This document shows positions 2,201 through 24,248 of a DNA stretch of 64,000 nt, one piece after another (the stretch's first letter is position 1; every line of letters begins with the position of its first letter). The stretch lies in IMG/VR virus record IMGVR_UViG_3300050821_003452, positions 12,590 to 76,589 of that record; one strand, given 5' to 3'. The stretch is from a virus. The notes under the pieces are model-generated. The model had not been told where the DNA came from. It saw nothing but the letters and a program-made list of their open reading frames with translations, and made no database searches. The position numbers and the translations under genes are program-made.

Positions 2201-2657
2201 TAACTGGACAGCAGAAGAGAAGAGCATCTTGATCGAACACTGGGATAGTAACAAATCGGCCCAAGAAATCTCCAATATGCTTGGCACCAAGAGCAGAAAT
2301 GCGGTGATCGGGAAGGCTCACAGATTAGGCCTCGCCTCACGCAAGAAAGCTTCGCCGCCCCGGAACCCAACCAAGGTTCCGAAAGTTGCAAACGATAACA
2401 CCGAACCCAAGATGGCAAAGATCAGGACCATAAAGGCCAAGCCGCCTACCAAGCTCTCGGCAGAGGTTCCTCTTCCGACTGGTCAGCACCCTATTACCAT
2501 CATGGAGCTAACTTCCAACACTTGCCGGGCTATCGTGGGTCGCGGCTCCAATGGACTTGCTACATATTGTGGTGAGGAAGTGTTCCCCGGCAAGGTCTGG
2601 TGTCCCGGCCATTGCGTGCTGTACTTCAATCATGAACCACGGCGGCGCTCGGCATGA
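2190..2657 (+). CDS. gcrA: GcrA cell-cycle regulator homologue
   Basis: NWT..W....SAQEI...LG..SRNAVIGKAHRLGL N-domain; C-terminal IMELTSNTCRAIVG...YCG...WCPGH. Confidence 0.92.
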   Translation: MAIDNWTAEEKSILIEHWDSNKSAQEISNMLGTKSRNAVIGKAHRLGLASRKKASPPRNPTKVPKVANDNTEPKMAKIRTIKAKPPTKLSAEVPLPTGQHPITIMELTSNTCRAIVGRGSNGLATYCGEEVFPGKVWCPGHCVLYFNHEPRRRSA

Positions 2658-2824
2658 GTACCGGGTCGGTCTACGCTAAATATGAGCTTCCGGAACAAAA
2701 TCCGGAAGCTCACTTGATGTACCGGCCTGAGTTTAGTTTGGAGGAAATGGAAGCCGCTAGGCAGCTAATTAGTGCCTTGCGCCAAAGCCCACCTTGCGGA
2801 CCTTCCCGCCCTGACCCTGATTGA
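2654..2824 (+). CDS. 56-aa protein carrying the C-terminal tag (subtype A); absent from ORF track
   Basis: ATGA overlap with gcrA stop; MSTGSVYAKYELPEQNPEAHLMYRPEFSLEEMEAARQLISALRQ... Confidence 0.65.
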   Translation: MSTGSVYAKYELPEQNPEAHLMYRPEFSLEEMEAARQLISALRQSPPCGPSRPDPD

Positions 2825-3893
2825 ATAGGTCGGCAATAGAGTAAGTGCCCTTCTCGATAGGAATAGGCACGCCGGCAACCTTGGCCGCCGCCTGAGCTTC
2901 ATTCAGGTCCAACTCGCGGGTCCTGATCACGCCATAACAGCGCCCCGGCCTTAAAAGCGCTTCGTCCACCCGGCCAAAGTCAGCGGACCCCAGATTGGTA
3001 GTAAACACCAGTTTCTTGTTGGGAAGCTTGATAAGCCCGTCACTGACAGAGAGAAATCTGGCCATCATCTTATTGCCGTCATCCCGCTCGGAAAGGATGG
3101 TATCGGCGTCTTCGATGACCATGATCTCGGAGTTATCGTTAAAGAGAAATCCCTGAAAAACGGCGTCTTTCTCCATGAGTTTTTCGTCATAGATCACATG
3201 GGCAGAAAGCTTATGATCTATGATCAGGTGCCTGAGAAGCGTGGTTTTCCCGGTGCCGGGAGGCCCCGCAAGAAGCAGGACGCTGGCATCGGAAGCCAGA
3301 TATTTATCCATGAAATCATAGGGGTCGCCAAGGTCCGGGTAATATTCCGGATGCAGTTTGGTCTTGTTTGGTGGAAAGTAAATATCGCGGGTTTCGGTGC
3401 CGTGGCGCCCCTCATACCACCATTTGACCTTGGCCATTTTCTCGTTGGCAAAGGCGCTCTCGATCTCCTGCTTGATATCCAGTGCCACGTCTTTCTCGGC
3501 ATAGATATATGCCGTTATATCATGAACATCTTCGTTTTCTTCGCCATGGCGAGAGTTATTGTTGAGGATAACCAAGCGATCCGTACCCTCAATAACCACC
3601 AAGTTTGAATTAGGCATGGACAGGCGAGATTTATCTTCGCCCGCAATAACATGAACCTGATGATAGATATCGAGGGCCGAATTGGCTTTGCGCACCACGA
3701 TCTTTGTGGTTTCTGAATAGATATTAAGCAAGGTGCGCGCGATGAATTGCTGGATGATCTGGTTCTCCAGCGACGTATCAACAACCGTCGCATGCTCCAT
3801 CTGAAACGAATTGGTCTTGTCCATTTTCTTGCCTCTTGCCTTCAGGCTCTTTGCTGCCCTAAAATCATCCCAGTGAGTATTCCAGTGTGACAT
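2769..3893 (-). CDS. AAA+ ATPase (classical clade, BCS1-like)
   Basis: Walker A GPPGTGKT, Walker B MVIEDAD, SRH DEALLRPGR; start may be 3824. Confidence 0.88.
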   Translation of the reverse strand: MSHWNTHWDDFRAAKSLKARGKKMDKTNSFQMEHATVVDTSLENQIIQQFIARTLLNIYSETTKIVVRKANSALDIYHQVHVIAGEDKSRLSMPNSNLVVIEGTDRLVILNNNSRHGEENEDVHDITAYIYAEKDVALDIKQEIESAFANEKMAKVKWWYEGRHGTETRDIYFPPNKTKLHPEYYPDLGDPYDFMDKYLASDASVLLLAGPPGTGKTTLLRHLIIDHKLSAHVIYDEKLMEKDAVFQGFLFNDNSEIMVIEDADTILSERDDGNKMMARFLSVSDGLIKLPNKKLVFTTNLGSADFGRVDEALLRPGRCYGVIRTRELDLNEAQAAAKVAGVPIPIEKGTYSIADLFNQGQGGKVRKVGFGARH

Positions 3894-3926
3894 TTCTAGA
3901 CTGGATCAAATCTTTAGGGCTAATTT

Positions 3927-4286
3927 ATGACTAAGATCACGATGCATCTTCCATTTCCTCCAAGCACAAATTCATTGTGGCGTTCAAGCAGAGGGCGCGT
4001 TCATCTTAGCGCTAAGTATAAAGCATGGTTGAATACAGCCGGCTACGAATGGATCGCACAAAAGAAACATCAGCCTAATGGAATATCCGGGCATTTCAAA
4101 GCCATTTTAATACTTAACGAAGATATGCGCAGTAGAAAAGATTGCGATAACCACGCGAAAGCGCCTCTTGACCTTGCCAAACAGCACGGATTGATCGTGG
4201 ATGACAAACTTTGCGATGCAATTCTTATCAAGTGGGGCTCGCCAAAGAAAGCTCCATTAGGGGCCAGACTTGTTCTTAAGGGTTGA
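3927..4286 (+). CDS. rusA: RusA-like Holliday junction resolvase
   Basis: LPFPPSTNSLWR, RKDCDNHAKAPLD, IVDD motifs. Confidence 0.88.
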   Translation: MTKITMHLPFPPSTNSLWRSSRGRVHLSAKYKAWLNTAGYEWIAQKKHQPNGISGHFKAILILNEDMRSRKDCDNHAKAPLDLAKQHGLIVDDKLCDAILIKWGSPKKAPLGARLVLKG

Positions 4287-4559
4287 ATAGATTTCTTGCT
4301 CGAATAGAATATTCTCCAATTCTGTTTTTGGCTCTTTATCTTTCGGTAAATATTCAAAAGTGTCCGAAAGATAATCCCCGTCCATTTGCCCGGCCCGAAA
4401 TTCATTATCATCCCATTTAACATGAACCAGCCAATCCTTCATATACTCCGACCAATAAGTTTGTTTTGTAATTATGGCTATGGCTCCAGCCCTTGCCGCC
4501 ATCCCGCCCCGATCTACAGGCATGAAAACCCTATCACCCATTTCAAATATTTTCTTCAT
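4257..4559 (-). CDS. Small SH3/KOW-like protein with degenerate C-terminal tag
   Basis: FEMGDRV start; ends TELENILFEQEIYSTL. Confidence 0.7.
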   Translation of the reverse strand: MKKIFEMGDRVFMPVDRGGMAARAGAIAIITKQTYWSEYMKDWLVHVKWDDNEFRAGQMDGDYLSDTFEYLPKDKEPKTELENILFEQEIYSTLKNKSGP

Positions 4560-4891
4560 GACATACCCTCCAGTATTTCCATAGCCTGCATGGTTTCGTT
4601 ATATTCTTCATTTCCTACTTCTATCGGGGACGGTTCTTTGAATAATTCCACAAAATCTTGCCAATACTCGTTTTTATACTTTTTATCGGCCCATTCTACA
4701 GATGTAGCCCAATAAGTTGGCGGCTCATTCGGTACGGCGAACGGACCTACACTATGGCCCTTGCGACTAACATTTTCAGGGCGCCATTTTCGATTGGCGG
4801 TAACAATTCCAATGCCTTCGCGCTGGAGTTTATTTTGGGTATTATATACCCTGACCCTATCACCGATCTTGAATTTTGGTTCGTCGCTCAT
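4556..4891 (-). CDS. Small SH3/KOW-like protein with C-terminal tag (B)
   Basis: FKIGDRVRV start; ends GNEEYNETMQAMEILEGMS. Confidence 0.8.
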   Translation of the reverse strand: MSDEPKFKIGDRVRVYNTQNKLQREGIGIVTANRKWRPENVSRKGHSVGPFAVPNEPPTYWATSVEWADKKYKNEYWQDFVELFKEPSPIEVGNEEYNETMQAMEILEGMS

Positions 4892-4896
4892 GGTTG

Positions 4897-5141: not shown

Positions 5142-5148
5142 ACCGGCC

Positions 5149-5817
5149 ATGACATCCACCGAAACTCTCATTCAAGAACTGGTTAATCTTGGGTGCCCCG
5201 CAGCACGGGCCTTCACCCTTGTCAGTGAGGCTAGAACGCAATGGGCCGCTGAACCAAAACAGCGCTCCCGGCACTCCCTCGCCCAGTCGAAATATTATTT
5301 CAAGCGGAAGGCTAAACGATCATCCGATGATCATCCGATGATCAGTGATGATCATCATGATCACTCAAAAGAAAGTCTCCATACCTCTAAAGAAAACATA
5401 GGTTATACATATTCTGTTAACTCACTACGTTCGTTAACAGCACCGGAAGACGGTTGCGATCTGTTCAAAAAAGGTCTCCCGCTTCTATCTCAACTCACTG
5501 GAAACAAAAGCCATTCTTCATTGCGTTCACTGCTTGGGCGCTGGGTAAAGATGGTCGATGGCGATCATGTTCATGTTCTCGCCGCCATCGAAGACGCCGC
5601 CCGGGAACAGCCCATCGATCCAAGGGGCTGGATATTTGGCCGGCTCAACCAAATCGTTCGGGAACGCAATAAAAACAGGCCAGAAAGCTACCAGAAAAAG
5701 GAAAGCAACCATGCCGTTCTTGCCGCTGTCGGAGCCAAAATCAGAGCCCTCTACCCCGAAGACCAACCCCAAGACGGCCCACCACTGGCTAACGCAGCTT
5801 TTCGGCTTATTCCCTGA
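5149..5817 (+). CDS. Putative replication initiator (lambda O-like organisation)
   Basis: Internal iteron-like repeats; C-terminal SLLGRW...IDPRGWI domain; context with Cro and RusA. Confidence 0.55.
   Translation: MTSTETLIQELVNLGCPAARAFTLVSEARTQWAAEPKQRSRHSLAQSKYYFKRKAKRSSDDHPMISDDHHDHSKESLHTSKENIGYTYSVNSLRSLTAPEDGCDLFKKGLPLLSQLTGNKSHSSLRSLLGRWVKMVDGDHVHVLAAIEDAAREQPIDPRGWIFGRLNQIVRERNKNRPESYQKKESNHAVLAAVGAKIRALYPEDQPQDGPPLANAAFRLIP
5318..5364. repeat. GATGATCA-based tandem repeats, candidate replication origin iterons
   Basis: gatcatccgat gatcatccgat gatcagtgat gatcatcat gatcac. Confidence 0.6.
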
Positions 5818-6310
5818 TACGGCGAACCTAAAATCTGAAATGGTTCAAGCCATGGTATTGATATTTTCTCAATATCCAGAAAGCACGCTCAAGGTTATTG
5901 TTAATCCTCTGGAAGGCCTCCCTTCTAAATTCAAGTTCTTGCCCGGCGTCATGGAATTTGGGGCGGCCTGCGCGGAAATCTCTGCTGCGGTTGAGTTGCA
6001 AAAGCAGAGAATTGCCGACCATGAACGAAAGGTTTATTACCAAGCCCTGCCGGCCCCTGAGAGGCCCGCTGAGAAGGGTTGCTATGAGGGGCCTATCGAA
6101 CTGGTCAAACCCGGGGATATCCTCTCATGGGAGCGCCATGCTGAATACAGGGCCTATATGGAAGCCAAACATGGTTTTGACCCCGGGCGGGCAGTAGACC
6201 CCAAGAACTGGATGGATAGCGGTAGGCGCCCATTCGATACACTATCTGGCAAGCACAGTGCTAACCAAAATCAATCTACGGAAGAACCTAACCCCTTTGA
6301 TATTTCCTAA
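5711..6310 (+). CDS. Hypothetical protein, possible replication partner
   Basis: Overlaps the initiator-like gene; GGAAAG before ATG; acidic NPF C-terminus. Confidence 0.55.
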   Translation: MPFLPLSEPKSEPSTPKTNPKTAHHWLTQLFGLFPDTANLKSEMVQAMVLIFSQYPESTLKVIVNPLEGLPSKFKFLPGVMEFGAACAEISAAVELQKQRIADHERKVYYQALPAPERPAEKGCYEGPIELVKPGDILSWERHAEYRAYMEAKHGFDPGRAVDPKNWMDSGRRPFDTLSGKHSANQNQSTEEPNPFDIS

Positions 6311-6315
6311 TAATC

Positions 6316-6591
6316 CTATCCCTCGATAAGCTGCCTTCCTAGTTCGATTTCCTCTAATGAGAAATCTGGCTCGACCATAGGATAGTCATTTTTTTCTGGA
6401 ATAAGATCGTCTTCTGCATACCAAATTCTATCGATTGGAGGGGACATACCATCCCGGTTAACCAAAAAAATATCAGTACTGTCTTTTCTCTCTATTTTTT
6501 CAGTAATCTTGCCATGAATTTCATAATGCGGGGCATTGGAGTTATCTTCATATTCCCGCGTAACAATGACAACACGATCTCCCACCTTCAT
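6316..6591 (-). CDS. Small SH3/KOW-like protein with C-terminal tag (A)
   Basis: MKVGDRVVI; ends EPDFSLEEIELGRQLIEG. Confidence 0.8.
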   Translation of the reverse strand: MKVGDRVVIVTREYEDNSNAPHYEIHGKITEKIERKDSTDIFLVNRDGMSPPIDRIWYAEDDLIPEKNDYPMVEPDFSLEEIELGRQLIEG

Positions 6592-6965
6592 GTCATGTCC
6601 TCCATGATTTTCTGGGCTTGTTCTATTTCCGACAACTCAAAAGTATTGCCGGCGTTATTAGTATTTGTAACCATCTTTTTACGCTTGCGATAAAACGTGG
6701 ATTTATGCATCCATGTTTCTGGTGTAAGGTCCCTTCCTGCGCCACTCATTTCAAGGCAATACAATGGGCCTTTCTGATAAAGGTCAAAAGGGTCAGAAGT
6801 GTCAAATCTGCCATATTTGTTTCGGCGTAACATCGCATAGTGCCCAAGATAATGGTCATTATGAAACTCTGGCACCCAGATATCATTGGCCTTATACAAT
6901 GCCTTTATGAGCTTTATATCTCTCGGCAAAAATGGCCGGACGTGGTATTCTACTTTGTCAGACAC
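6588..6965 (-). CDS. Hypothetical protein with C-terminal tag (A)
   Basis: Ends NTFELSEIEQAQKIMEDMT. Confidence 0.75.
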   Translation of the reverse strand: MSDKVEYHVRPFLPRDIKLIKALYKANDIWVPEFHNDHYLGHYAMLRRNKYGRFDTSDPFDLYQKGPLYCLEMSGAGRDLTPETWMHKSTFYRKRKKMVTNTNNAGNTFELSEIEQAQKIMEDMT

Positions 6966-7269
6966 CTTGCATTTCCTTTATGTAGAATTCTGCTAATTCC
7001 ATATCGTCCAAGTCGAAGTCCGTTTCCATGACTTGCTGATAAGCCAGAGGCTCAACATGGGCCTCGCGAAACCAGAATTTGGGATACTCTCTTCTTCCTA
7101 CGATTACCGGATTGTCGAATTCAACCTGAAAATCATATCCAGCCGACGCTATAGCCCTGACAGTGCCGAATGGCTCTTTAGTGAAGAGCATAGGCAGATT
7201 ACCATCGCCATTCGCAGTAGGAACGGTTCTGATCAGAATTCTAACCCTATCACCTTCTTTGTAGGTCAT
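6958..7269 (-). CDS. Small SH3/KOW-like protein with C-terminal tag (A)
   Basis: YKEGDRVRI; ends ETDFDLDDMELAEFYIKEMQGV. Confidence 0.8.
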   Translation of the reverse strand: MTYKEGDRVRILIRTVPTANGDGNLPMLFTKEPFGTVRAIASAGYDFQVEFDNPVIVGRREYPKFWFREAHVEPLAYQQVMETDFDLDDMELAEFYIKEMQGV

Positions 7270-7604
7270 GACAAATCCTCCAGTATCTTGCTGCCGGCCT
7301 CGATTTCATCTAGTGTAAAATCCGGCTGGAGCATTTCAAAGCGTTCTGGTTCAATGTGTTCGAACCCGTACCACCATTCTGATCGGTTCCCATCGTGCTT
7401 AAAAGAAATCAGCAAATCATAGTCAGTGGCATGAGTTTGGTTGGCGCTTAAATCCTCAATAACCCCTATTTGTCCCTTGATGGGACTGTAGCGTTTATCA
7501 TGTGGGCCTCTTCTGTAAGGTTCCCTTCGGCTATCTCTTAATGGGACATAATCGATAAGAAACCTAATCCTGTCGCCTATTGCGAATTTTTGTTTGGGTC
7601 CCAT
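7266..7604 (-). CDS. Small SH3/KOW-like protein with C-terminal tag (A)
   Basis: FAIGDRIRF; ends QPDFTLDEIEAGSKILEDLS. Confidence 0.8.
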   Translation of the reverse strand: MGPKQKFAIGDRIRFLIDYVPLRDSRREPYRRGPHDKRYSPIKGQIGVIEDLSANQTHATDYDLLISFKHDGNRSEWWYGFEHIEPERFEMLQPDFTLDEIEAGSKILEDLS

Positions 7605-7822
7605 GCCGGCACCTTTGGTTTATCATTCATAAGCATTTCCTGAAGGCGCTCGTTTTCGAGTTGAGTATCCTCAAGGGTTTCTTCTAGGCTTGCCAGACAT
7701 TGCAGAACAGCGTTAGTTAGTTGCGCCATCGCACTACTCGCATGAAGCGGGTTGGCAAACTGGTCCGGAGTTTTCGGAAGCTTGTCGATTAGCTCTCTAA
7801 ATTTTTCAGTGTAGACGCCCAT
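7577..7822 (-). CDS. Hypothetical coiled-coil protein
   Basis: 81 aa, GGAGAAG RBS, in operon. Confidence 0.6.
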   Translation of the reverse strand: MGVYTEKFRELIDKLPKTPDQFANPLHASSAMAQLTNAVLQCLASLEETLEDTQLENERLQEMLMNDKPKVPAWDPNKNSQ

Positions 7823-8045
7823 ATTTCTTCTCCTGCGATGACAGTCTCATATTCTTCTGCGCCGTTATTCATGACTTGCTTATTATATGGAAGCGCATCA
7901 AGGCCCGCTCTCAGGATTTTACCAATGTTGGCATTTGCCGTATTGCCGCCGTTTTATCGAAATACTCCGACACCCATATCTGGTCGTCTCCAGAAAGGTT
8001 CTGGTATTCGTTATGGGCCCGATCCCAAAGCTGCCTATCAACCAT
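7789..8045 (-). pseudogene. Frameshifted tagged gene (B)
   Basis: MVDRQLWDRAH...EYFDK, then -1 frame NGGNTANANIGKILRAG...GAEEYETVIAGEEIWASTLKNLES; break at the T-run 7952-7955. Confidence 0.6.
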
Positions 8046-8283
8046 TCATGATCTCCTGCGCTGTTATGGCCTCTTCGTACTCTTGGGCCGCGACTGTCAT
8101 AGGGGTGGGGACCAAATCCGGCATACGCCAATAAATGGCTTCCAATAGTGCCTGCCCATCATAGAGCGGGACCCTGTTTATTTTGTAGCGTCCGATGATA
8201 GTAGCGCGTTCAGCGGTCCCCTCAGGGGCCACTTTGTTCAAAAGGTTGACTATTTCAACCCACTTTGCGGTATGTATGGCCAT
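8038..8283 (-). CDS. Hypothetical protein with C-terminal tag (B)
   Basis: Ends TPMTVAAQEYEEAITAQEIMNG. Confidence 0.75.
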   Translation of the reverse strand: MAIHTAKWVEIVNLLNKVAPEGTAERATIIGRYKINRVPLYDGQALLEAIYWRMPDLVPTPMTVAAQEYEEAITAQEIMNG

Positions 8284-8308
8284 ATGCTATGATCCTCTTA
8301 TGTTGGTC

Positions 8309-8326: not shown

Positions 8327-8330
8327 CTAA

Positions 8331-8798
8331 ATGATGGTTACTAATTCTGTGCTGCGCGATCCCAAGAGAGAACTCTTTGCGCAAAAAGTTTCTGCCGGCG
8401 TTCCCAAGGAACAGGCTTACCAAGAAGCGGGCTACCTTGGAAAATCAAAAATGGGCAGTTCTCGTCTTATGAATATCCCTGCCGTGCGAGCCCGCATCAA
8501 CGAAATCATGGATGCTGGCGCCAAGCGTTCTGAGCTAACCAGAAAGGGTATTCTGGAGAGAATATTCGAAGACTGGGAGACCGCACGTAAACTCGGCCAG
8601 ATACCTGCTGCGCTCAAAGCCGGGGAATTATTGGGTCGCGAGATGTTCCGGATGTTTACCGAACGAAAAGAAATTGGTGGCCCGGGGGATTTCGATCAGA
8701 AGTCTGAGGAAGAGCTTCGTCAGATCGTTACAGAGGAACTAAAACAACTGGGCTGGGAAGACCTATCAACCCAACCTCCCTCAGATACCGTCAATTAG
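8331..8798 (+). CDS. terS: Terminase small subunit
   Basis: KRELFAQ....G...QAYQEAGY......SRLM..PAVRARINE, AALKAGELLG...MFTERKE. Confidence 0.8.
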   Translation: MMVTNSVLRDPKRELFAQKVSAGVPKEQAYQEAGYLGKSKMGSSRLMNIPAVRARINEIMDAGAKRSELTRKGILERIFEDWETARKLGQIPAALKAGELLGREMFRMFTERKEIGGPGDFDQKSEEELRQIVTEELKQLGWEDLSTQPPSDTVN

Positions 8799-9062
8799 CT
8801 CTTGCGCTTCGTGGATTTCATCTAGCGTGAAATCAGGTTCAGGTGGCTTTAGTTTGATTATCTCCAGGTCTTCCTCTGGATAAATAAATCCATCATGATG
8901 GGGGTGTATCTCTTCCACATGCGGCCAAATAACGCGACGCCAAGTTCTTTTACTGTTGTTTGGCTTGGTGTCTAATGCCGTTATTCTTCCAGTTTCTCCC
9001 TTGGATTGGTGCAACCAGTGACTTAGATTACCTTTGATTTTTACCAGATCACCTATTTTCAT
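8781..9062 (-). CDS. Small SH3/KOW-like protein with C-terminal tag (A)
   Basis: MKIGDLVKI after GGAGGG RBS; ends EPDFTLDEIHEAQELIDGI. Confidence 0.8.
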   Translation of the reverse strand: MKIGDLVKIKGNLSHWLHQSKGETGRITALDTKPNNSKRTWRRVIWPHVEEIHPHHDGFIYPEEDLEIIKLKPPEPDFTLDEIHEAQELIDGI

Positions 9063-9120
9063 CTTTATCCCTCCATAATTGCTTAACACAGTCCCCCGTA
9101 AGGGACTGGCCTTAAGCAAT
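9063..9120 (-). promoter_or_regulatory. Intergenic stem-loop element E0 (variant lacking the alternative strand)
   Basis: TGA ATTGCTTAA GGC CAGTCCCT TACG GGGGACTG TG TTAAGCAAT ...GGAGGG...ATG. Confidence 0.6.
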
Positions 9121-9710: not shown

Positions 9711-10268
9711 ATGTCTAAGACGTGCTCACGATGTTCTCAAACGAAACTACTGACGGAGTTTTATGCCCGTGGATCATGGTGCAGGACTTGCAACAAGACT
9801 ATATGCAAAGCGTACTATGAAGCTCGGAAGCGACGGAATGGGAAGCTGGTAAGGCCGCGCAATCCGATCATTAATGGTCTCAAAAATTGTCGCCAGTGTA
9901 ATACTGTAAAGCTCATATCAGAATTTTGGAAACACGGTAAATTTCCCGGCGCGTACTGTAAGATTTGCGCTAGTGAGGCAGGTAAGGCGTGGTATAAAGA
10001 GAATAAGCGTAAGGATAAGGATTGGAAACTGCGTCGCACTTACGGCCTCACCATTGATCAGTACGAACAAATATTGGCTCGACAGAATTATAAATGTGCT
10101 ATTTGCAAAGTTTCTAATCCGAAAGGTCGGAATGGCTTCAACGTAGATCATTGTCACGAAACTAGTAAAATTCGCGGTTTACTTTGTTCCAATTGTAACA
10201 TTGGAATAGGAAATCTTCAACACGACCCGGATATTCTCCGGGCCGCATTGAAGTATCTCGAAGTCTAG
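9711..10268 (+). CDS. Endonuclease VII-like HNH (putative homing endonuclease)
   Basis: YGLT..QYE.....Q...CAIC...VDHCH.T.KIRGLLCSNCN.GIG; antisense to the surrounding operon. Confidence 0.9.
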   Translation: MSKTCSRCSQTKLLTEFYARGSWCRTCNKTICKAYYEARKRRNGKLVRPRNPIINGLKNCRQCNTVKLISEFWKHGKFPGAYCKICASEAGKAWYKENKRKDKDWKLRRTYGLTIDQYEQILARQNYKCAICKVSNPKGRNGFNVDHCHETSKIRGLLCSNCNIGIGNLQHDPDILRAALKYLEV

Positions 10269-11431
10269 TAATCAACCGTTCGCCCAAAGGGCGCGCGGAG
10301 CTTGTTGTGGGCAGCGAAGTTCACAAATACGACGGGAAAGGGCGGTTCCTTGCCAAAGGAACCCGTCTCTAAATCTGTGAAAAAGATCATGCCAACTGAT
10401 CCGGCATATTCTTCGTTCACAAGCTTCATGAGACTTTCAAAGTGCGTCCCTCCGCCCCCGCGAGGCTTCCATTCAATGACACCCTGCGAGTTGGTTACGA
10501 CCGAAATTGACTTCGGTTCAGTGTCCACGGCAATAAGCGTGGCTTGGTTGATAATATTCTCGTCCAAAACCGCTGACGCCTCTGTCTTCATGGCTTTCAA
10601 CATATCATCACTCACAGAGCCAGATACGTCAAATACCAACAGAAGATTGTAGATATTGTCATCGGCATAACCCGGCATAATCGGGTCCTGCCTACGACGA
10701 TTTACGCGGGTCCAAGAACGACTTTCGCGTGATTTGGCATCGCGCGACATATCCCGGATAATATCCCGCCAATTCAGTTTCTCGACTGGCAATAATTCTT
10801 CTACCAATCGCTGAATGTTGGCCGGCATATTGCCGGCCTTCTTGGCCTTGTCAGAGGCGTTTGCTACCGCGCGTGACCAATCCTTGGCTGCCTGATCGGC
10901 CTCTTCCTGATCTTCCGGAGAGGGGTCTTCCATGCCGCCCGGTTGGTTAGCACCGTTTTCACCATCGCTTTGGCCTTTGCCGCCGCCTTTGCCACCACCA
11001 CCTTTCTTGCTTTCCTGTTCTTCCAGAAGCTCATAAATCTCTTCCGCAGCTTTATTAGGATAAAGCCCATCGCCTTTCATTAACTCGGGATGTTGTGGAA
11101 AATACTGATGAACCAATGGCCTTACTGAAAAGTCAGTGGCTTGGTTCCACTTGTCCTTGTCGCGGGACTTCCTGCGGGGAACATGCGCCAATGCAAGGTG
11201 CATGATCACTTCAAGAATATCGCCCTCAATGTACTGATCATTTTCCTTGACGTATTCCGGATTGAAAAAGATGTTGATGCCGTTAGTCCAGATTGCGGGC
11301 CTACGGTCACTTTCTTCAAGCCGGGCATTGAACAGAAGGGACGCAAAGAAAGGATTGCGCCGCGCGATACGTTCGCGTGCCACCAATACCCGTCGCATTG
11401 CATCCGTATATTTGGTATTCCAGTTCCACAT
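10265..11431 (-). CDS. VWA-domain protein with DUF2201-like N-terminal region
   Basis: MIDAS-like FDVSGSVS, GGGGTHF, FFTDLE; NPFFASLL...WTNG..IFFNP. Confidence 0.85.
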   Translation of the reverse strand: MWNWNTKYTDAMRRVLVARERIARRNPFFASLLFNARLEESDRRPAIWTNGINIFFNPEYVKENDQYIEGDILEVIMHLALAHVPRRKSRDKDKWNQATDFSVRPLVHQYFPQHPELMKGDGLYPNKAAEEIYELLEEQESKKGGGGKGGGKGQSDGENGANQPGGMEDPSPEDQEEADQAAKDWSRAVANASDKAKKAGNMPANIQRLVEELLPVEKLNWRDIIRDMSRDAKSRESRSWTRVNRRRQDPIMPGYADDNIYNLLLVFDVSGSVSDDMLKAMKTEASAVLDENIINQATLIAVDTEPKSISVVTNSQGVIEWKPRGGGGTHFESLMKLVNEEYAGSVGMIFFTDLETGSFGKEPPFPVVFVNFAAHNKLRAPFGRTVDY

Positions 11432-11503
11432 GATTTGTTCCCTCTTTATGAAGCATGTCGCTTCGTGCTGCCCTAGATTGCTCTAGGGCAGTGTCGAAAC
11501 GTC
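11432..11503 (-). promoter_or_regulatory. Bistable intergenic RNA element E2
   Basis: TAA GA CGTTTCG ACA CTGCCCTAGA GCAA TCTAGGGCAG CA CGAAGCG ACAT GCTTC ATAAAGAGGGAA. Confidence 0.75.
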
Positions 11504-12526
11504 TTACTTCTTATCAACCGCTTCCTGTACCAAGCTCGCCAAGTCTTTGTTGGACTTGAGACTGGTATCGCGCGCCATGGCTTCGTGTGCGGCCATGGAA
11601 CGGATATCCGGAGTAAGCCGCGAAAGATACTCGGCAAACTTGGAGGCGTTCTTGAGGTCGATGTTCTTGGCCACGGCAGACGCCACAACATACTGATAGT
11701 GTGGATCAGTCGGGACCTTGGCCTTGCTCGGATTAGCCAGAATATCGCCCATCTTGGGAAGTCCCGCCGCAAGGTTATTGATGAACGTCATAAACTGACG
11801 CGAAAAGCCGTCACCAAGAATAGCCTGAGCATTGTTCTCAAGAACAGCCTTGGAGCTATCCATTGAGAGGTTTTTCAGGACCTTGTTGAAGCTTTCCAAA
11901 GACCTTGGCGTCGGAAATGCCGGATCAGTCTGCGATACCTTGTGAATATCGTCAGGCCGAAGTGTCAAATACGCGACAAGGCGCGGGTCCCAACCCCAGA
12001 TTTTCATCTTTTCGATCAAACCCGGAGCGTCGGGTTCCACACTGACATGCGCCATGCGGTTCTCAAGAGGCTTCAGCATCTTGTTATCGCCGCCGCCGTC
12101 AGTCCGGGTATTGCTTGCCAGCAAAACGCGGTTTTTGTTGGGCAACGGAAAGCCGCCCAAACCACGATCCAGCACAAGGCTATAAGCCATCTGCTGAAGC
12201 TGTACACTCGCATGTCCGAACTCGTCATAGAACATCACGTGCATATTGCCGTCTTCCTGCGGAATGAATGCAGGCCGCGTCCAATAAGTCGCACGATTGT
12301 CCTTGTCGATAATCGGCATGCCAGTGCCATCCACAATATCCTTTGTGGAAAGCCGGGTATCATGCAAGATCGAAGTGCCGTATTCTTTGACTATGGCTGG
12401 CAAGACTTCGTTCTTGATGATAGAAGACTTGCCCACACCAGTCGGGCCATAGATCATTACCGGAACATCGGCAAAGACCAAAGGCAAGACGGTATCTGCA
12501 AGCTTGGTTATTTTCACCTTAAGCAT
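11504..12526 (-). CDS. MoxR-like AAA+ ATPase
   Basis: GPTGVGKS, MFYDEF, LASN, LENR, FPTPRS; adjacent to the VWA gene. Confidence 0.88.
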   Translation of the reverse strand: MLKVKITKLADTVLPLVFADVPVMIYGPTGVGKSSIIKNEVLPAIVKEYGTSILHDTRLSTKDIVDGTGMPIIDKDNRATYWTRPAFIPQEDGNMHVMFYDEFGHASVQLQQMAYSLVLDRGLGGFPLPNKNRVLLASNTRTDGGGDNKMLKPLENRMAHVSVEPDAPGLIEKMKIWGWDPRLVAYLTLRPDDIHKVSQTDPAFPTPRSLESFNKVLKNLSMDSSKAVLENNAQAILGDGFSRQFMTFINNLAAGLPKMGDILANPSKAKVPTDPHYQYVVASAVAKNIDLKNASKFAEYLSRLTPDIRSMAAHEAMARDTSLKSNKDLASLVQEAVDKK

Positions 12527-12607
12527 GTTTGATTTTCCCTCTCGTCTGAGCAACATTGCTCACCAATGCGCTATATGGCTAGTACAGCGCATGGCGTGAA
12601 CAGTGAT
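12527..12607 (-). promoter_or_regulatory. Bistable intergenic RNA element E3
   Basis: TAA ATCAC TGTTCAC GCC ATGCGCTGTA CTAGCCA TATAGCGCAT TG GTGAGCA ATGTT GCTCA GACGAGAGGGAA. Confidence 0.75.
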
Positions 12608-12799
12608 TTACGCATACCTGCTATGCGTTATTGAGGTATCAAGACTGTATCCATGAGACCACACTTTTAGCGTTGTGCCGTCCGTAAAGGTAAGGATAAT
12701 TGTCTCGTTATTCCCGTTGGTATTGTTGGCAGTGTCCATTGCCATGTATTCGGCATGAGAAATGGTCTTGCCAACAAGCTCAAAGATATTCACTGGCAT
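12608..12799 (-). CDS. Hypothetical protein
   Basis: MPVNIFELVGKTI...ILTFTDGT. Confidence 0.6.
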   Translation of the reverse strand: MPVNIFELVGKTISHAEYMAMDTANNTNGNNETIILTFTDGTTLKVWSHGYSLDTSITHSRYA

Positions 12800-13736: not shown

Positions 13737-13803
13737 TTGATCCCTCTCTCTATTAGAGCTTAATGCTCTATGCTGCACTGTTGCCAGTGCAGAGGTAGAA
13801 CAT
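13737..13803 (-). promoter_or_regulatory. Bistable intergenic RNA element E4
   Basis: TGA ATGTTCTA CCT CTGCACTG GCAA CAGTGCAG CA TAGAGCAT TAA GCTCTA ATAGAGAGAGGGA. Confidence 0.8.
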
Positions 13804-16000: not shown

Positions 16001-16004
16001 GGTT

Positions 16005-18420: not shown

Positions 18421-18445
18421 CATAATTTAGTGGTAGAGACCCAAG

Positions 18446-18739
18446 ATGTCCAGTAAAGCGCAGAAATATGATTTTCGGGTTGGGGACTTGGTGGTCTGTG
18501 CTGACATTTCGGGCGACACCAGACAACTGACGCTTGGCGTGACTTATAAAGTAGAGAAAATACTCAGGAGCCATATTCAGATTATTGGCGACCGTGGATA
18601 TCCTATTAACAGATTTGCTAGGCAATTTAAGCCGGCGCCGGTTCCCGAAGTTATTACCTCCGAAGTTATTACCTCCGATGACCAAGAATACCATGAAATC
18701 CTGAAGGCTCAAGAGATTTATGAGGATGCGACCAAATGA
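18446..18739 (+). CDS. Small SH3/KOW-like protein with C-terminal tag (B)
   Basis: FRVGDLVVC; ends DDQEYHEILKAQEIYEDATK; 15-bp tandem duplication at 18645-18674. Confidence 0.8.
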   Translation: MSSKAQKYDFRVGDLVVCADISGDTRQLTLGVTYKVEKILRSHIQIIGDRGYPINRFARQFKPAPVPEVITSEVITSDDQEYHEILKAQEIYEDATK

Positions 18740-18999
18740 AAACAGGAAATACCGTCTGGTGCATCAATGGCGGGCCGACGCCGGTTGGCGAAAGCTCGTA
18801 TCTGACTGTCGGTAAAGAATACGAAGTCGAGCTGATTACCGCCAATCATGTCCATGTTACTGGAGATCATGGATGGGTTGTGGTGCGCCGAAGGGACAGG
18901 TTCGCGTTGATGGCCCCCACGTCTCCGATGGAGAGTATGGCAGAAGAATACCATGACGCCCTCCAAGGCCAAGAAATATACGAGAGCCTGATCGAATGA
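18736..18999 (+). CDS. Small SH3/KOW-like protein with C-terminal tag (B)
   Basis: MKTGNTVWC...LTVGKEYEV; ends SPMESMAEEYHDALQGQEIYESLIE. Confidence 0.8.
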   Translation: MKTGNTVWCINGGPTPVGESSYLTVGKEYEVELITANHVHVTGDHGWVVVRRRDRFALMAPTSPMESMAEEYHDALQGQEIYESLIE

Positions 19000-19472
19000 A
19001 ATTCATGGTTGGCGATAAAGTCAGGGTGATCATTCCCCAATGGCACGGGAACCGTGAGGGTGAAGTCAATCATGCTTGCTCAATCCATGCTATCTACATA
19101 ATTGGGTGTCGCGCCGTGGTAAATTTTCTTGGTCTGTTCAAAACCAAGCCTTCCATTGCCAAGCCGCTTCAGGTGCCGGGAATATCCCCGCCGCCTCAAT
19201 TTTCCATAGGCGATATAGTTATGCTCAGGGATATAAACCCCTACAAGGGCTCGCTATCCAGCAAGAACACATATTCAGTTCTCAGGTTTATACCTCCGGA
19301 CCATCTTTGCGTTCAATCCGATACCGGAGATAATTCTTGGTATTCCGCCAGATATTTCACCTTGGTACGGCAATCGCCCCTTACGGCAGCCGACGAATAC
19401 GAAGAGATCATGAAAATTCAGGACAGCCTTGATTTAGCCGAATTTCAAGGTCATAAAGACCACAGAGACTAG
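18996..19472 (+). CDS. Double SH3/KOW-like protein with C-terminal tag (B)
   Basis: FMVGDKV and FSIGDIV units; SPLTAADEYEEIMKIQDSLD. Confidence 0.75.
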   Translation: MKFMVGDKVRVIIPQWHGNREGEVNHACSIHAIYIIGCRAVVNFLGLFKTKPSIAKPLQVPGISPPPQFSIGDIVMLRDINPYKGSLSSKNTYSVLRFIPPDHLCVQSDTGDNSWYSARYFTLVRQSPLTAADEYEEIMKIQDSLDLAEFQGHKDHRD

Positions 19473-19678: not shown

Positions 19679-19960
19679 ATGTCTGAACCCAAACCAGAGA
19701 ACGCAAAGAACCCGGCGAGCTTCGCTCCCGGGGACTTTGTGCATTTCGAAGACTATCGGAACAAAGAAGATGTTTACGGCTATGTTACTCACGTTCAAGG
19801 CTCAGATGTATGGGTAGATGTAGATGCCGAGAATAAATGGATCGTCAGTGCATCAAGTCTGACATTTGTAATGCCCGCCAAAACACCGATGACGGACGCC
19901 GCAGAGGAATACGAAGAAACAATTCTGGCACAAGACATGATGGAAATCCTCCATGGATGA
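19679..19960 (+). CDS. Small SH3/KOW-like protein with C-terminal tag (B)
   Basis: FAPGDFV; ends TPMTDAAEEYEETILAQDMMEILHG. Confidence 0.8.
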   Translation: MSEPKPENAKNPASFAPGDFVHFEDYRNKEDVYGYVTHVQGSDVWVDVDAENKWIVSASSLTFVMPAKTPMTDAAEEYEETILAQDMMEILHG

Positions 19961-20249
19961 AGACGATAAAATCCGCCATGCCAAATCAGTTAGGCGTATT
20001 TATAATGAAGACCAGCAACAAAAAGATGAATTTGGGGCTTTGCTAAAGATCGTGGATGATAGATTTGGAGAGGAGTGGCGCTCCAAGATCATCGATCTTG
20101 TCTGGCTGGATGCAACAGACGAGATGTCTTATCGCGATCTTTATAATCTTGCCATCCATAAAGCCAAGCTAAAGCTGAATATAATTGTGCTTGATGCCAC
20201 CGAGTATGAAGAAACCATGCGCTTCTCGGATATTATGGAGACGCTATGA
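19953..20249 (+). CDS. Helical hypothetical protein with C-terminal tag (B)
   Basis: Ends DATEYEETMRFSDIMETL. Confidence 0.75.
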   Translation: MDEDDKIRHAKSVRRIYNEDQQQKDEFGALLKIVDDRFGEEWRSKIIDLVWLDATDEMSYRDLYNLAIHKAKLKLNIIVLDATEYEETMRFSDIMETL

Positions 20250-20794
20250 TGATTTGGTATTTTTTATACTTTATCTGGGCATTTACTGGCGTATCCATAA
20301 TAGGTGCGCTTGTGGTCATTCGTTATAATATCTGCATGACAAGAATGATGAATGTAAAAAGCGACTTGTGGAGCGGGTATGATTGTAATTTTTGTGCACT
20401 GGGCGAAAACTGTCATCATCTCAAGACAGAACTAAGACATATCGAATGGGATCAAGTCCACAAGTGTATGTTCTGGGGCAGGAACTATCGTCGGCATCTT
20501 GAGCCACTGACCCAGTGTGCATTGAAAGGTATTTATCCAGAAGAAAATGATTGTCCTATATTCTGGAATTCCTACAAGAATATTTACCCTCTTCTGCAAG
20601 AAAAGCAGCGACGGCAGGTTCTTGCCAATCTTACAGGCTGGAACCAACCACAGGTGATGTTTACGCATGAACTTGAATGTCTTGGTTTCAATGTCTGGGT
20701 TTTTGATAGTAAAAATAACTCTACTAATGCCGGCGCAGAAGAATATCTTGAGGCCATCAAGGCGCAGGAAATTGCAGAGCAAATGGGACTATGA
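20246..20794 (+). CDS. Membrane-anchored hypothetical protein with C-terminal tag (B)
   Basis: N-terminal TM; ends GAEEYLEAIKAQEIAEQMGL. Confidence 0.75.
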   Translation: MMIWYFLYFIWAFTGVSIIGALVVIRYNICMTRMMNVKSDLWSGYDCNFCALGENCHHLKTELRHIEWDQVHKCMFWGRNYRRHLEPLTQCALKGIYPEENDCPIFWNSYKNIYPLLQEKQRRQVLANLTGWNQPQVMFTHELECLGFNVWVFDSKNNSTNAGAEEYLEAIKAQEIAEQMGL

Positions 20795-21297
20795 AACGCA
20801 TCCTGATATGCGGCAGCAGGGAATTTTCCAATTGGGATATATTCTGGAATGCTCTACATGAGATCGCTTGGTGTTATTTTGCTAGAGGGCCGCTGGATAA
20901 TCAGGGTAATTTTACCTATGCGGTGACTGTCATCTGCGGCGGCGCAAAGGGTGCTGATACGCTTGCGATGGAATGGGCGGCAATCGAGAACGTCAATCTG
21001 GAAATCTATCTGGCTGAGTGGGACAAATTCGGCAAGTCTGCCGGCTATCGCCGCAACAAGAGAATGCTGGATGAAGGCAAGCCTGATATTGTAATTGCTT
21101 TCCCCGGTGGCATCGGGACAAAGATGATGGTGGATATCGCCAGACTGGCCAACGTGAAGATAATTAAGGTAAATGTCACTCCTGCCGGATCGCACTATGT
21201 AATAAGCGAGGACACCGCAGGCAGCCTAGACCCCGGTGCCGAAGAGTACGAGCAAATTATGGAAGCGATAGATTTAGTGGACAAAATGTCTCCATAA
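20791..21297 (+). CDS. YspA/SLOG-family (DUF2493-like) protein with C-terminal tag (B)
   Basis: RILICGSREF, GGAKGAD, AGYRRN..ML, AFPGG.GT..M; ends GAEEYEQIMEAIDLVDKMSP. Confidence 0.88.
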   Translation: MKRILICGSREFSNWDIFWNALHEIAWCYFARGPLDNQGNFTYAVTVICGGAKGADTLAMEWAAIENVNLEIYLAEWDKFGKSAGYRRNKRMLDEGKPDIVIAFPGGIGTKMMVDIARLANVKIIKVNVTPAGSHYVISEDTAGSLDPGAEEYEQIMEAIDLVDKMSP

Positions 21298-21802: not shown

Positions 21803-21920
21803 ATGGCAGGAAGAGTTAGCGCGAAGATGGCTCTTTTTGCCGACTGAAGAGGTTCTAACCTTTTCAGGGCGGGGAGGGAAGTTACGCTCCCTCCCCGCTA
21901 ACGTCTTGAGAGAGGGAAAT

Positions 21921-22181
21921 ATGTTTCTCACGAAAGAGCAAGCCAAAGAGACATGGTGTCCGTATGCGCATGTCGTATCGCTGCCAGCGCCAGTTATATC
22001 CGGATATAATAGAGCTTGGATAAGAGGCGGCAAAGCTGAAAATAATCATCCAGCTTGTACGGGATGCCTTGCCGATAAGTGCGCCTGTTGGCGCTGGGAA
22101 GCCTCTCTAACTGATATAGACCTGACGACTAGCTCCGTTGAGAAGCGCGGTTATTGCGGTCTGGCCGGCAGACCATGCTAG
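21921..22181 (+). CDS. Cys-rich protein, paralogue 1
   Basis: TKEQAKETWCP...CLADKCACWRW...RGYCGLAGRP. Confidence 0.75.
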   Translation: MFLTKEQAKETWCPYAHVVSLPAPVISGYNRAWIRGGKAENNHPACTGCLADKCACWRWEASLTDIDLTTSSVEKRGYCGLAGRPC

Positions 22182-22456
22182 TCACTGAACAGGAAGCCCA
22201 GAAGCGTTGGTGCCCTATGGGTCGCCAGCCGACCATGGTGCCTACAGGCGCCAACGCAAATATGTGGACGCATGTAGCCGCCAATCGTCAACCCAATGGC
22301 GACGTGCCATCCTGTCTGGGCTCTCTATGCATGGCTTGGCGATGGCATGACGAAAAAACCTATCGTGAAATTGATGTAACCACTAACGAAGTTCTGGACG
22401 AACAGCCAAGGCGAGGGTTTTGCGGGTTATTTGGGAAGCCTGAGTATGCAGAGTAA
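22175..22456 (+). CDS. Cys-rich protein, paralogue 2
   Basis: TEQEAQKRWCP...CLGSLCMAWRW...RGFCGLFGKP. Confidence 0.75.
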   Translation: MLVTEQEAQKRWCPMGRQPTMVPTGANANMWTHVAANRQPNGDVPSCLGSLCMAWRWHDEKTYREIDVTTNEVLDEQPRRGFCGLFGKPEYAE

Positions 22457-22940
22457 TTCGCGCTGCACAAAATGCGGCAAGACCAAAACGGCCAATGAAT
22501 TTGGCGTAAGGTATCGTATTTTGGTATCTGGTAAAAAATCTGGTCCATTTTTGGAAAGCTGGTGCTTGCCGTGCAAGCGCATCTATAATGGAAGAAGCGG
22601 CCCACGAAGAAGCGTCCGCAAACAAAAATTAATAGCCATGCATGGCGGCAAGTGTGTCAAGTGCCATGGCATTTTTCACCATGCGGCCTATGATTTTCAC
22701 CATAGGGACCCCTCTCAAAAACACTTCCATCTTACCGCTCTTTACGATAAGAAGTGGGATCGGTTGGTTGCGGAAGCCGCCAAATGTGATCTAATATGCT
22801 CTAACTGCCATCGCGTAATGCATTACGAAGAGGGTATTATTGTTTTTCCAAGCAAGGCCACAACGATGCTGGCCTCACGCAGGAAGGCTCGTCTGAACTA
22901 TCAACAAGATCAGGCAAATTACCGCAATAATAGGGAATAA
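22446..22940 (+). CDS. HNH endonuclease
   Basis: GGKCVKC...YDFHHRDP..K...EAAKCDLICSNCHR..H. Confidence 0.85.
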   Translation: MQSNSRCTKCGKTKTANEFGVRYRILVSGKKSGPFLESWCLPCKRIYNGRSGPRRSVRKQKLIAMHGGKCVKCHGIFHHAAYDFHHRDPSQKHFHLTALYDKKWDRLVAEAAKCDLICSNCHRVMHYEEGIIVFPSKATTMLASRRKARLNYQQDQANYRNNRE

Positions 22941-22945
22941 CAGCC

Positions 22946-23386
22946 ATGGGCGTTCTAGAAGAGCTTCACGACGAACACAAAGCCCGCCAAGAACGCATCG
23001 CCAAGGCGGCATTCAAGACAGTCGCCCTCCCACCTAAACCACTAACCATCACAAGCGAAGACCTGCCATTTGCCAGTTTTGATATTATTCTCAATGAGAT
23101 ATGTGCATATTTCGGAACTAGGGTAGAAGATATCCTTTCCTCCCGCCGCCAAGCCGATCTTGCCAAAAAACGCGCCATGCTGGCCTACATGACTTATCTG
23201 CTGACGCCTTTATCTAACCCTCAAATTGCCATAAAAATGAACCGAGACCCCACCAGCATAGGTTACGCTATCAACAGGGTCAGAAATAACCTTAGCATGC
23301 ACACCGAGACCATCGATATACTGGAAGCCAAGATCGTCCCGCTGCTGGAAGAAAAAACCCAGCGGGTCAAGAAAAGAGATAGATAG
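22946..23386 (+). CDS. DnaA C-terminal (domain IV)-like HTH protein
   Basis: ICAYFG..VEDILSSRR......R....Y....LT.LS.PQIA..MNRD.TSI.YA. Confidence 0.8.
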   Translation: MGVLEELHDEHKARQERIAKAAFKTVALPPKPLTITSEDLPFASFDIILNEICAYFGTRVEDILSSRRQADLAKKRAMLAYMTYLLTPLSNPQIAIKMNRDPTSIGYAINRVRNNLSMHTETIDILEAKIVPLLEEKTQRVKKRDR

Positions 23387-23787
23387 TGAGTACCTTCATT
23401 GCATACTTGTTGCTTGGTGTGGCTGCCGGCATCATCGCGAGTGTGATCTGGAAGCTTCTCAGCCATGAGCGCAAATTCAATAACTATGTGGCAGAGCTTC
23501 GCGGCATGACCGAGGCCATGAAGCAATCCAATCGCGAAGTCAGTGAGCTTCACTTCAGGGACATTACTGGAAGGCCGCGCATTGTGCGGATCGTGGTGGA
23601 TTATGGCCTGACCGATGAAGTGCTTTCTGACGGCTTGATAGATTTTGTCCGCTCTACCAAAGTGGCCAACAACACCGACGAGATGATATTCTCTCCCCGC
23701 GCAGTCCGAGAACTTCGCGCCAAAGGCCTTGAGCCTGATGATGTTGTCAGGCAAATGCTGATTGCATCAGGGATTATGCCGCGATGA
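23386..23787 (+). CDS. Membrane-anchored hypothetical protein
   Basis: N-terminal TM helix. Confidence 0.6.
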   Translation: MSTFIAYLLLGVAAGIIASVIWKLLSHERKFNNYVAELRGMTEAMKQSNREVSELHFRDITGRPRIVRIVVDYGLTDEVLSDGLIDFVRSTKVANNTDEMIFSPRAVRELRAKGLEPDDVVRQMLIASGIMPR

Positions 23788-24248
23788 TCTCACGCTTGCT
23801 GGATTATATGGAGAAAATAGCCAACCCAAAAAAGGAAACTCCAGTGGCAAATATAAACTCATATTATGGCATTGCCGGCACTGCGCCACCGACAGTGCCG
23901 GCTGGTGGCAGCGGTACCTATTGTTCAACCGGCAGTGCTGGCATCAGTGCTGGCATTGCTTACCATCAGCATGCCCAAGTTAACAAGGTTAATGGCATGG
24001 GCCTTCCAATGTTCCCAAGCGGACAGGTGGTGACTATTTCCTTTCGCGATGCTTATGGTGTTATGTTCTCGCTGGCGGTTGATAGCACTGTTGTTACGTT
24101 GATGAACCATATTGATGGTATCCATGGCATGGCATCAGCGCAGTTTACGCCTGTGACTAAATTCAAGATGAATGATGCAGATTTCTCCATCGATGAACTG
24201 GAGAAAGCCGAAAAGGTTATGGAAGAGTTGGGATATGAGCGAGCCTAG
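23784..24248 (+). CDS. Hypothetical protein with C-terminal tag (A)
   Basis: Ends DADFSIDELEKAEKVMEELG. Confidence 0.7.
   Translation: MISRLLDYMEKIANPKKETPVANINSYYGIAGTAPPTVPAGGSGTYCSTGSAGISAGIAYHQHAQVNKVNGMGLPMFPSGQVVTISFRDAYGVMFSLAVDSTVVTLMNHIDGIHGMASAQFTPVTKFKMNDADFSIDELEKAEKVMEELGYERA

Follow-up and report, generated by a model that had tools for sequence, protein, structure and literature searches.

A shared acidic C-terminal helix on small early proteins of an uncultured soil phage and its candidate readers

Approximately one third of the early genes of an uncultured tailed soil phage encode small proteins of several folds that end in one acidic helix of about 22 residues, here called the tag. 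These genes lie in bases 12590-76589 of IMGVR_UViG_3300050821_003452, a single virus record of 76,589 bases; this whole stretch of 64,000 nucleotides is referred to as the window, and positions in this phage are counted within it. Between 2654 and 24248, 17 open reading frames (ORFs) are tagged, seven with a form designated subtype A and ten with a form designated subtype B. The tag is conserved as a peptide under selection, is modular and portable between the proteins that carry it (the cargos), and is confined to one phage clade. It is tentatively read here as a docking helix for one shared partner, with ATPases of the phage itself as the preferred candidates.

A peptide shared by seventeen small early proteins

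An earlier note on this DNA, made from the letters alone, had listed about 18 such ORFs, each by the lower coordinate of the ORF and not by the position of the motif. A hidden Markov model (HMM) trained on 16 tags from two other phage records only, and applied to all 1801 ORFs and 20 shuffles, recovered exactly 17 ORFs at 8.1-26.0 bits, with the next ORF at 4.2 bits and a shuffled maximum of 6.3 bits. The motif is thus significant against shuffled sequences and 17 sites are firm, while the weak site at 4257 (at most 0.6 bits) drops out. An earlier profile from 15 copies adds two, 7789 and 2654, above the shuffled maximum, and an HMM scan found no further tag elsewhere in the 76.6-kb genome. 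The tagged ORFs are as follows, with the other-phage HMM as evidence for the tag unless a line gives another source or score.

2654-2824 (+), tag about 2696-2785: 56-residue ORF after the GcrA gene, subtype A in mid-ORF (20.4 bits)
4556-4891 (-), tag 4559-4648: barrel, subtype B
6316-6591 (-), tag 6319-6408: barrel, subtype A (other-phage HMM and AlphaFold2 model)
6588-6965 (-), tag 6591-6680: basic protein of 125 residues and another type, subtype A
6958-7269 (-), tag 6964-7053: barrel, subtype A
7266-7604 (-), tag 7269-7358: barrel, subtype A
7911-8045 (-), 44-residue ORF, then subtype B in another frame at 7789-7953, tag 7804-7893 (12.4 bits)
8038-8283 (-), tag 8041-8130: helical-type protein of 81 residues, subtype B (26.0 bits)
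8781-9119 (-), tag 8784-8873: barrel, likely start 9062, subtype A
18446-18739 (+), tag 18647-18736: barrel, subtype B
18736-18999 (+), tag 18907-18996: barrel, subtype B (HMM; phrog_4927 on the cargo)
18996-19472 (+), tag 19356-19445: two-barrel protein, subtype B followed by 9-18 more residues
19679-19960 (+), tag 19868-19957: barrel, subtype B
19953-20249 (+), tag 20157-20246: helical-type protein of 98 residues, subtype B
20246-20794 (+), tag 20702-20791: Cys-rich protein of 182 residues with a hydrophobic N-terminus, subtype B
20791-21297 (+), tag 21205-21294: SLOG (YAcAr) protein, subtype B (Pfam PF10686)
23784-24248 (+), tag 24147-24236: Gly-rich protein of 154 residues, subtype A

Subtype A follows the pattern [DE]-F-[ST]-L-[DE]-E-[IM]-x-x-[AG]-x-x-[IL]-[IL]-[DE] and subtype B the pattern [AG]-x-E-Y-x-[DE]-x-[IM]-x-A-Q-[DE]-I-x-E. 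The two align without gaps in a single register and have in common an aromatic residue or leucine, an acidic pair, a hydrophobic residue, a small residue, a hydrophobic pair, and a final acidic residue; the second residue of the pair is acidic in 30 of 33 tags. Many copies have P-M six residues upstream of the core (P-M, four residues, then the core). Of the earlier description as an acidic amphipathic helix, the first adjective is supported, with a net charge of -3 to -6 over the 16-residue core, and the second is not, as the hydrophobic moment of the tags is an unexceptional 0.25 compared with 0.23 for random 16-mers.

Across the 15 codons of the core, the first codon position holds 12.2 bits of information, the second 15.1 bits, and the third 3.7 bits, and pairwise third-position identity across tag codons is 31%. 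Third positions are therefore nearly free, which indicates selection on the peptide and not on a DNA element, in agreement with the earlier proposal of conservation at the protein level. The same figures exclude a nucleic-acid element or recent gene conversion at the tag. A Shine-Dalgarno constraint was also rejected, because the core sits 45-66 nucleotides before the stop codon.

The distance from tag to stop codon was taken from 33 tags in three records. It is 0-4 residues for 25 of them and at most 15 residues for 32, the sole exception being the inner tag of a protein made of two tandem barrel-tag units, and the residues that follow the helix vary freely and number 0-15. The proposed C-terminal placement thus holds in general and fails for 2654-2824, in which the tag lies in the middle of the ORF; this ORF is syntenic with a tagged gene of 145 residues that follows GcrA in a related phage, G1. 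The site at 7789 likewise carries the tag in a frame that differs from that of the 44-residue ORF upstream, and reading of all three frames suggests that 7789-8045 is likely a frameshifted gene or pseudogene, or a sequencing error. As a separate observation, the 56-residue ORF at 2654-2824 (+) overlaps the 3′ end of an AAA+ ATPase gene at 2769-3893 (-) by 56 bases.

The tag sits on at least six types of cargo. About nine of the 17 are divergent, paralogous GDxV beta-barrels with weak mutual similarity, so that "unrelated", the word used for the cargos before, was an overstatement; the remainder are the SLOG protein, the Cys-rich protein, two helical-type proteins, the basic 125-residue protein, the Gly-rich protein, and the 56-residue ORF. 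These include the folds that had been named from the sequence, namely a small barrel, a SLOG domain, helical proteins, and a hydrophobic N-terminus, to which the Gly-rich family is now added. The AlphaFold2 model of 6316-6591 has a five-strand small barrel, weakly matching chromo, Tudor, and SH3-like folds, followed by a 13-residue coil and a confident helix at residues 79-90 that corresponds to the tag. The product of 20791-21297 belongs to the SLOG/YAcAr group, with residues 3-79 matching PF10686 at 2e-13 and 50.4 bits against a gathering cut-off of 28.2 bits. The hydrophobic N-terminus of 20246-20794 is probably membrane-spanning, and the architecture of this protein together with its tag recurs in G1 and in P0013. 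The Gly-rich family of 23784-24248 is the most widely conserved tagged family, and searches with it gave matches in G1 and two short metagenome contigs only. In a collection of 5.8 billion clustered proteins, ORF 7266-7604 matched nothing but itself.

Portability of the tag, the first half of the proposal that a portable helix leads cargos to a common hub, is apparent from these cargo types, from a natural [barrel-tag][barrel-tag] fusion, and from a SLOG orthologue in a tag-less relative, G6, that is 43% identical and ends right after the domain. Mean pairwise identity is 32% for the tag core and 17% for the cargos, against a shuffled-cargo baseline of 14%; the tag is more conserved than the cargos and is kept while they turn over.

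A search of 1.84 billion representative proteins with the tag profile gave 12 matches at E<=1e-3, all at a C-terminus or in a tandem [barrel-tag]x2 unit and all on the same few cargo families. In hmmscan searches of the 33 tags against Pfam at E<=10, no family recurred and three unrelated single matches were seen. These searches also give no support to the resemblance to the N-terminal helix of PopZ that had been suggested for subtype A: none of the 33 tags matched the PopZ family, which we take to be Pfam DUF2497, and full-length tagged proteins gave no PopZ family in Pfam at E<=1. What remains is a loose likeness, an acidic stretch followed by hydrophobic residues, and the PopZ helix differs in being N-terminal and in belonging to the hub and not to its clients. 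No PDB sequence matched the tags, and comparison of the tagged proteins with 50,697 phage records gave neither a near match nor one at the level of protein sequence. Literature searches found no publication on a shared C-terminal tag of phage early proteins and nothing relevant on PopZ with phage or DUF3150 with phage.

Candidate readers and the distribution of tags

Among the hubs proposed earlier, co-occurrence in a few lineages points to two as possible readers of the tag: the AAA+ ATPase at 2769 and the pair of MoxR and von Willebrand factor A (vWA) proteins, which together with a third gene forms a module at 10265-13778.

2769-3893 (-): Bcs1/YjoB-like AAA+ ATPase, candidate reader (Pfam AAA, AlphaFold2, Foldseek)
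10265-11431 (-): vWA protein with an N-terminal zincin-like domain (DUF2201_N and DUF2201), candidate reader (Pfam)
11504-12556 (-): MoxR-type AAA+ ATPase, partner of the vWA protein (phrog_1297)
12780-13778 (-): DUF3150-like protein, third gene of the module (look-alike clusters are DUF3150, a lead only)

The product of 2769-3893 was modeled with a pLDDT of 86 and has a mixed alpha/beta N-domain. Its top Foldseek matches are Bcs1 and YjoB of Bacillus subtilis, over the full length (333-395 columns) at E values of 6e-13 to 1e-9, and it has the Walker A motif GPPGTGKT and the invariant ED of Walker B, which place it with the Bcs1/YjoB-like ATPases at a sequence identity of 14-17%. In the vWA protein, residues D268, S270, S272, T329, and D353 of the metal ion-dependent adhesion site (MIDAS) are invariant among 35 homologues. 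The HExxH motif of its zincin-like domain is replaced in all close-clade sequences, including G1, G2, G5, and G7, and is intact in distant homologues and in two further records, G8 and G9; the domain in this phage is probably a pseudo-peptidase. The MoxR gene adjoins the vWA gene and its product is 61-74% identical in tag-bearing relatives, and the DUF3150-like gene is conserved beside MoxR in relatives. The pair of MoxR and vWA-peptidase genes occurs in 343 of the 50,697 phage records, and 573 homologues of the Bcs1-like ATPase were found.

The C-terminus of the DUF3150-like protein is an acidic tail with an aromatic residue, resembling [ED]-x-x-E-Y-x-[DE], in the clade with acidic tags, and a basic tail, K-K-V-Q-x-Y-M-K, in G8 and G9, and so mirrors the charge of the local tag.

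Fifteen records were compared, namely this phage (G0), G1, G2, and G5-G16, the relatives having been found through portal, vWA, and AAA genes.

G0, G1, G5, G7: AAA of full length; module present, HExxH lost; 7-17 acidic tags
G2, G16 (fragments): no AAA seen; module present; 4 and 2 acidic tags, respectively
G8, G9: AAA of full length, 43% identical; module present, HExxH intact; a different tag
G6 (complete, capsid protein 71% identical): AAA with a divergent N-domain; module absent; no tags
G14 (complete, capsid protein 77% identical): AAA absent; vWA only; no tags
G10-G13: AAA absent; module present (no DUF3150 match in G10); no tags
G15: partial AAA match; vWA not found; no tags

Acidic tags of both subtypes are found in five related records, with about 14 in G1, 12 in G5, 7 in G7, and the rest in the fragments G2 and G16. 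Relatives with portal proteins 57-70% identical keep the tag almost unaltered, and the capsid protein is highly conserved (83-88%). Tagged cargos turn over from one relative to another while the flanking genes stay put. A full-length AAA gene and the module both occur in the five tagged records that are near-complete or largely complete and in which every part can be seen, whereas the two fragments show the module only. In this sample, fragments aside, tags occur only where both the AAA gene and the module are present, and the tag behaves as an add-on tied to genome content.

The different tag of G8 and G9, L-x-[GS]-P-[HY]-x-x-T-[IL]-[YL]-[KR]-M, ends at least 10 small ORFs whose cargos have no detectable mutual similarity. 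An HMM trained on G9 finds 11 ORFs of G8 above a shuffled maximum of 9.9 bits, and the tagged regions extend over about 31900-37430 in G8 and 24900-31720 in G9; the structural module of both phages is unrelated to that of this phage. The net charge of MoxR ranges from 0 to +6 in the clade with acidic tags, from -3 to -6 in the basic-tag phages, and from -6 to 0 in tag-less genomes, a shift that lends weak support to a link with the tags because the tag-less range overlaps that of the basic-tag phages.

Two further C-terminal motifs were seen in these genomes. S-G-x-S-G-A-H-R-[IL]-G ends three neighboring ORFs each in G8 (38267-39412) and G9 (22015-23177). N-P-F-[DEK] stands at the extreme C-terminus of a conserved protein of 250 residues in this phage, 5558-6310 (+), and in relatives directly after the subtype A tag of a helical family (G1 38372-38701, G2 36255-36590, G5 42583-42894, and G16 31900-32223).

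A shared reader and the alternatives

The likeliest explanation, held tentatively, is that the tag is a portable C-terminal docking helix for one shared partner, with the phage's AAA ATPase and DUF3150-MoxR-vWA machinery as the preferred reader. A flexible, often Pro-containing linker would carry the helix of about 22 residues, and its addition to many small early proteins would allow one partner to handle them as a group. We infer that one common reader exists; portability is seen in the cargos, and co-occurrence only is what makes an ATP-driven remodeling machinery of the phage the preferred candidate. That reader could be the Bcs1/YjoB-like ATPase together with the DUF3150-MoxR-vWA module, in which an intact MIDAS beside a lost catalytic zincin motif means that the vWA protein could hold a peptide and leave it uncleaved. 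Once bound, the tagged proteins would be folded, unfolded, assembled, or timed by the ATPases. A bolder form of the idea, in which this phage clade runs its own protein-addressing system, both ATPase machines jointly read the tag and so fold, move, or time its carriers, and G8 and G9 use the same machinery with another tag dialect, is doubtful. Most early phage genes are small ORFans, and a shared tag points to a large group of them working through one partner. Such a system could give a first function to two widespread phage gene sets, the MoxR and vWA-peptidase pair and the Bcs1-like ATPase, and the tag might serve as a protein-recruiting tool; with different dialects in different phages, tag and reader may form a general and evolvable addressing scheme.

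Several results weigh against a reader of this kind. All five whole genomes with a vWA-peptidase homologue and no AAA gene lack the tag, and among 80 vWA loci screened within 10 kb, a range too narrow given that over 10 kb separates the tags of G9 from the vWA gene of that record, the only finds were three tandem paralogue arrays (L047, L071, and L084), with nothing within 10 kb at 74 of 77 further loci. The module alone is therefore not predictive of tags, and neither is the AAA gene alone, as G6 keeps an ATPase of the same architecture without tags. The N-regions of the AAA proteins are net acidic in all groups and have no charge complementarity with the tags. The co-occurrence amounts to about two independent tag lineages and few contrasts in a small, phylogenetically structured sample, in which gene content is co-inherited within clades. 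The tag also barely changes between phages, which suits a conserved host target as well as it suits a phage reader. A complex prediction that combined the tag (33 alignment rows) with the vWA protein (35 rows) and Mg scored 0.00 and carries no weight either way.

Second after the phage machinery ranks a conserved protein of the host, for example RNA polymerase, a hub of replication, a protease hub, or a polar organizer; the tag would bring many takeover proteins to this host protein, with the phage ATPases as unrelated neighbors. Near constancy of the tag across phages whose own proteins are 40-70% identical is what a slowly evolving target would produce, the absence of charge complementarity in the AAA N-regions fits, and the genome has host-interfacing regulators (a GcrA-like protein and one with a DnaA C-terminal helix-turn-helix) and no polymerase of its own in the annotated parts. 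This reading is nevertheless rather unlikely, since the complete but tag-less genomes G6 and G14 have the structural module in common with this phage (G6 has GcrA as well) and probably have similar hosts, and since the tags match no Pfam family or PDB sequence that would reveal a mimicked host motif. Ranked third, and improbable, is a special case of docking in which the tag is a degradation or unfolding signal, a timer by which a phage or host AAA+ machine removes early proteins on schedule. C-terminal degrons are established biology, as with ssrA and ClpX, and both the C-terminal placement on early proteins and the co-occurrence of two AAA+ systems would suit one. The freely varying 0-15 residues after the helix are, however, unlike the conserved free end of carboxy-terminal degrons, an internal copy is kept in the tandem protein, and the zincin-like domain beside the vWA domain has lost HExxH in this clade, with no other protease partner identified.

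Short helices often mediate self-association, and both subtypes coexist in every genome and could pair, but a scheme in which the helices bind one another or their own cargo, as oligomerization or autoinhibition without a separate reader, also has little probability. The net charge of the core disfavors self-association, one helix on at least six cargo types speaks against cargo-specific packing, and genomes carry or lack the tag as a set, suggesting dependence on another gene. Much further down stands a capsid-targeting or cargo-loading peptide by which the proteins would enter the head and be injected. Encapsulin loading peptides do resemble such a short tag, set on many proteins after a flexible linker, and the capsid protein is highly conserved. 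The procapsid, one of the hubs first suggested, nonetheless gains nothing from the tagged genes themselves, which are early or regulatory, lie in two divergent clusters far from the head genes, and encode a probable membrane protein and an enzyme domain among the cargos; moreover, tag-less G6 and G14 share the capsid protein. Barely credible, finally, is the view that the likeness of the tags is an artefact, due to paralogy or to a conserved stretch of nucleic acid where genes end. This view can draw on the kinship of about nine barrel cargos and on the clustering of genes whose tags share a subtype, but the freedom of third codon positions argues otherwise, as do the tags on SLOG, hydrophobic-N-terminus, helical, and Gly-rich proteins without cargo similarity and the SLOG orthologue of G6 that lacks one.

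Known systems offer partial parallels to docking on the phage ATPases. In ESCRT-III proteins, a helical motif (MIM) at the end of the chain docks on the N-terminal MIT domain of the AAA+ ATPase Vps4. The phage resembles this system in that a group of small proteins bear a helix at the C-terminus, preceded by a flexible linker, and in that a classic-clade AAA+ ATPase with an N-terminal domain co-occurs with it; unlike MIT, that domain is modeled as a Bcs1/YjoB-type alpha/beta fold and not as a three-helix bundle, the cargos are not one family, and docking is putative. Terminal docking peptides in general include beta-clamp-binding motifs, the C-terminal tip of single-stranded DNA-binding protein with its clients, encapsulin cargo-loading and microcompartment encapsulation peptides, and the T4 capsid-targeting sequence. 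The XVIPCD domain of Xanthomonas type IV secretion system effectors is likewise a terminal element shared by otherwise different proteins (PMC7777525). As in these cases, one short terminal element is found here on many different proteins, with a single reader inferred, but there is no sequence similarity to them and the setting is that of phage early proteins.

To our knowledge, neither Bcs1 nor YjoB has a described client tag. In fold, the phage ATPase at 2769-3893 resembles both over its full length (PDB 8t14, 6sh3, and 7w42), Bcs1 and YjoB handle specific folded client proteins, and YjoB has been proposed as a substrate-specific chaperone (PMC9565160); the link between the Bcs1/YjoB-like ATPase and the tags is correlative. 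In MoxR systems, vWA domains capture substrate peptides (PMC7159879), and peptide-processing vWA-MoxR modules include small proteins that diverge fast and retain a conserved peptide at the C-terminus (Kaur et al. 2020, PMC7159879). The phage is similar in that MoxR adjoins a vWA protein that retains its MIDAS and has a zincin-like domain at its N-terminus, beside genes for small, fast-diverging proteins whose acidic C-terminal peptide is conserved (32% versus 17% identity). It differs in that HExxH is lost and cleavage is unlikely, in that 7-17 tagged proteins of different folds take the place of one precursor, in that the module alone does not predict tags, and in that no radical-SAM or STAND/AP-ATPase partner was seen among the genes annotated. 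A MoxR and peptidase-vWA pair also occurs, uncharacterized, in group 2.2 jumbo phages (Iyer et al. 2021, PMC7824862), where a role in virion assembly was proposed; the tagged proteins of this phage, unlike that setting, are early.

Genome setting and neighboring genes

Among public runs, the sole DNA run with the record is a soil metagenome, and no RNA run is listed with it. The best match of the large terminase is 42% identical, with no close cultured phage, and no prophage copy was found in a search of one genome per prokaryote species. The region 2654-24248 consists of two divergent clusters of small genes, on the minus strand to about 16574 and on the plus strand from 18446. The window also encodes endonuclease VII and the DnaA C-terminal helix-turn-helix protein, and upstream of the window lie ERF and YqaJ recombination genes and tail-collar genes.

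2160-2657: GcrA-like regulator
34055-35761: large terminase
35770-38601: portal

A small-terminase-like protein (phrog_51, 1.5e-9) is encoded at 8331-8798 (+), on the opposite strand within the early tagged cluster and far from the large terminase, and is conserved in relatives. An operon for a nonulosonic sugar of the pseudaminic or legionaminic type occupies 24488-32199 (-) and contains NeuB, a DegT aminotransferase, a PseB-like dehydratase, a Gfo/Idh/MocA oxidoreductase, a methyltransferase, and a fusion of a cytidylyltransferase with a class III aminotransferase. The operon is conserved in G1, G2, G5, G6, G7, and G14.

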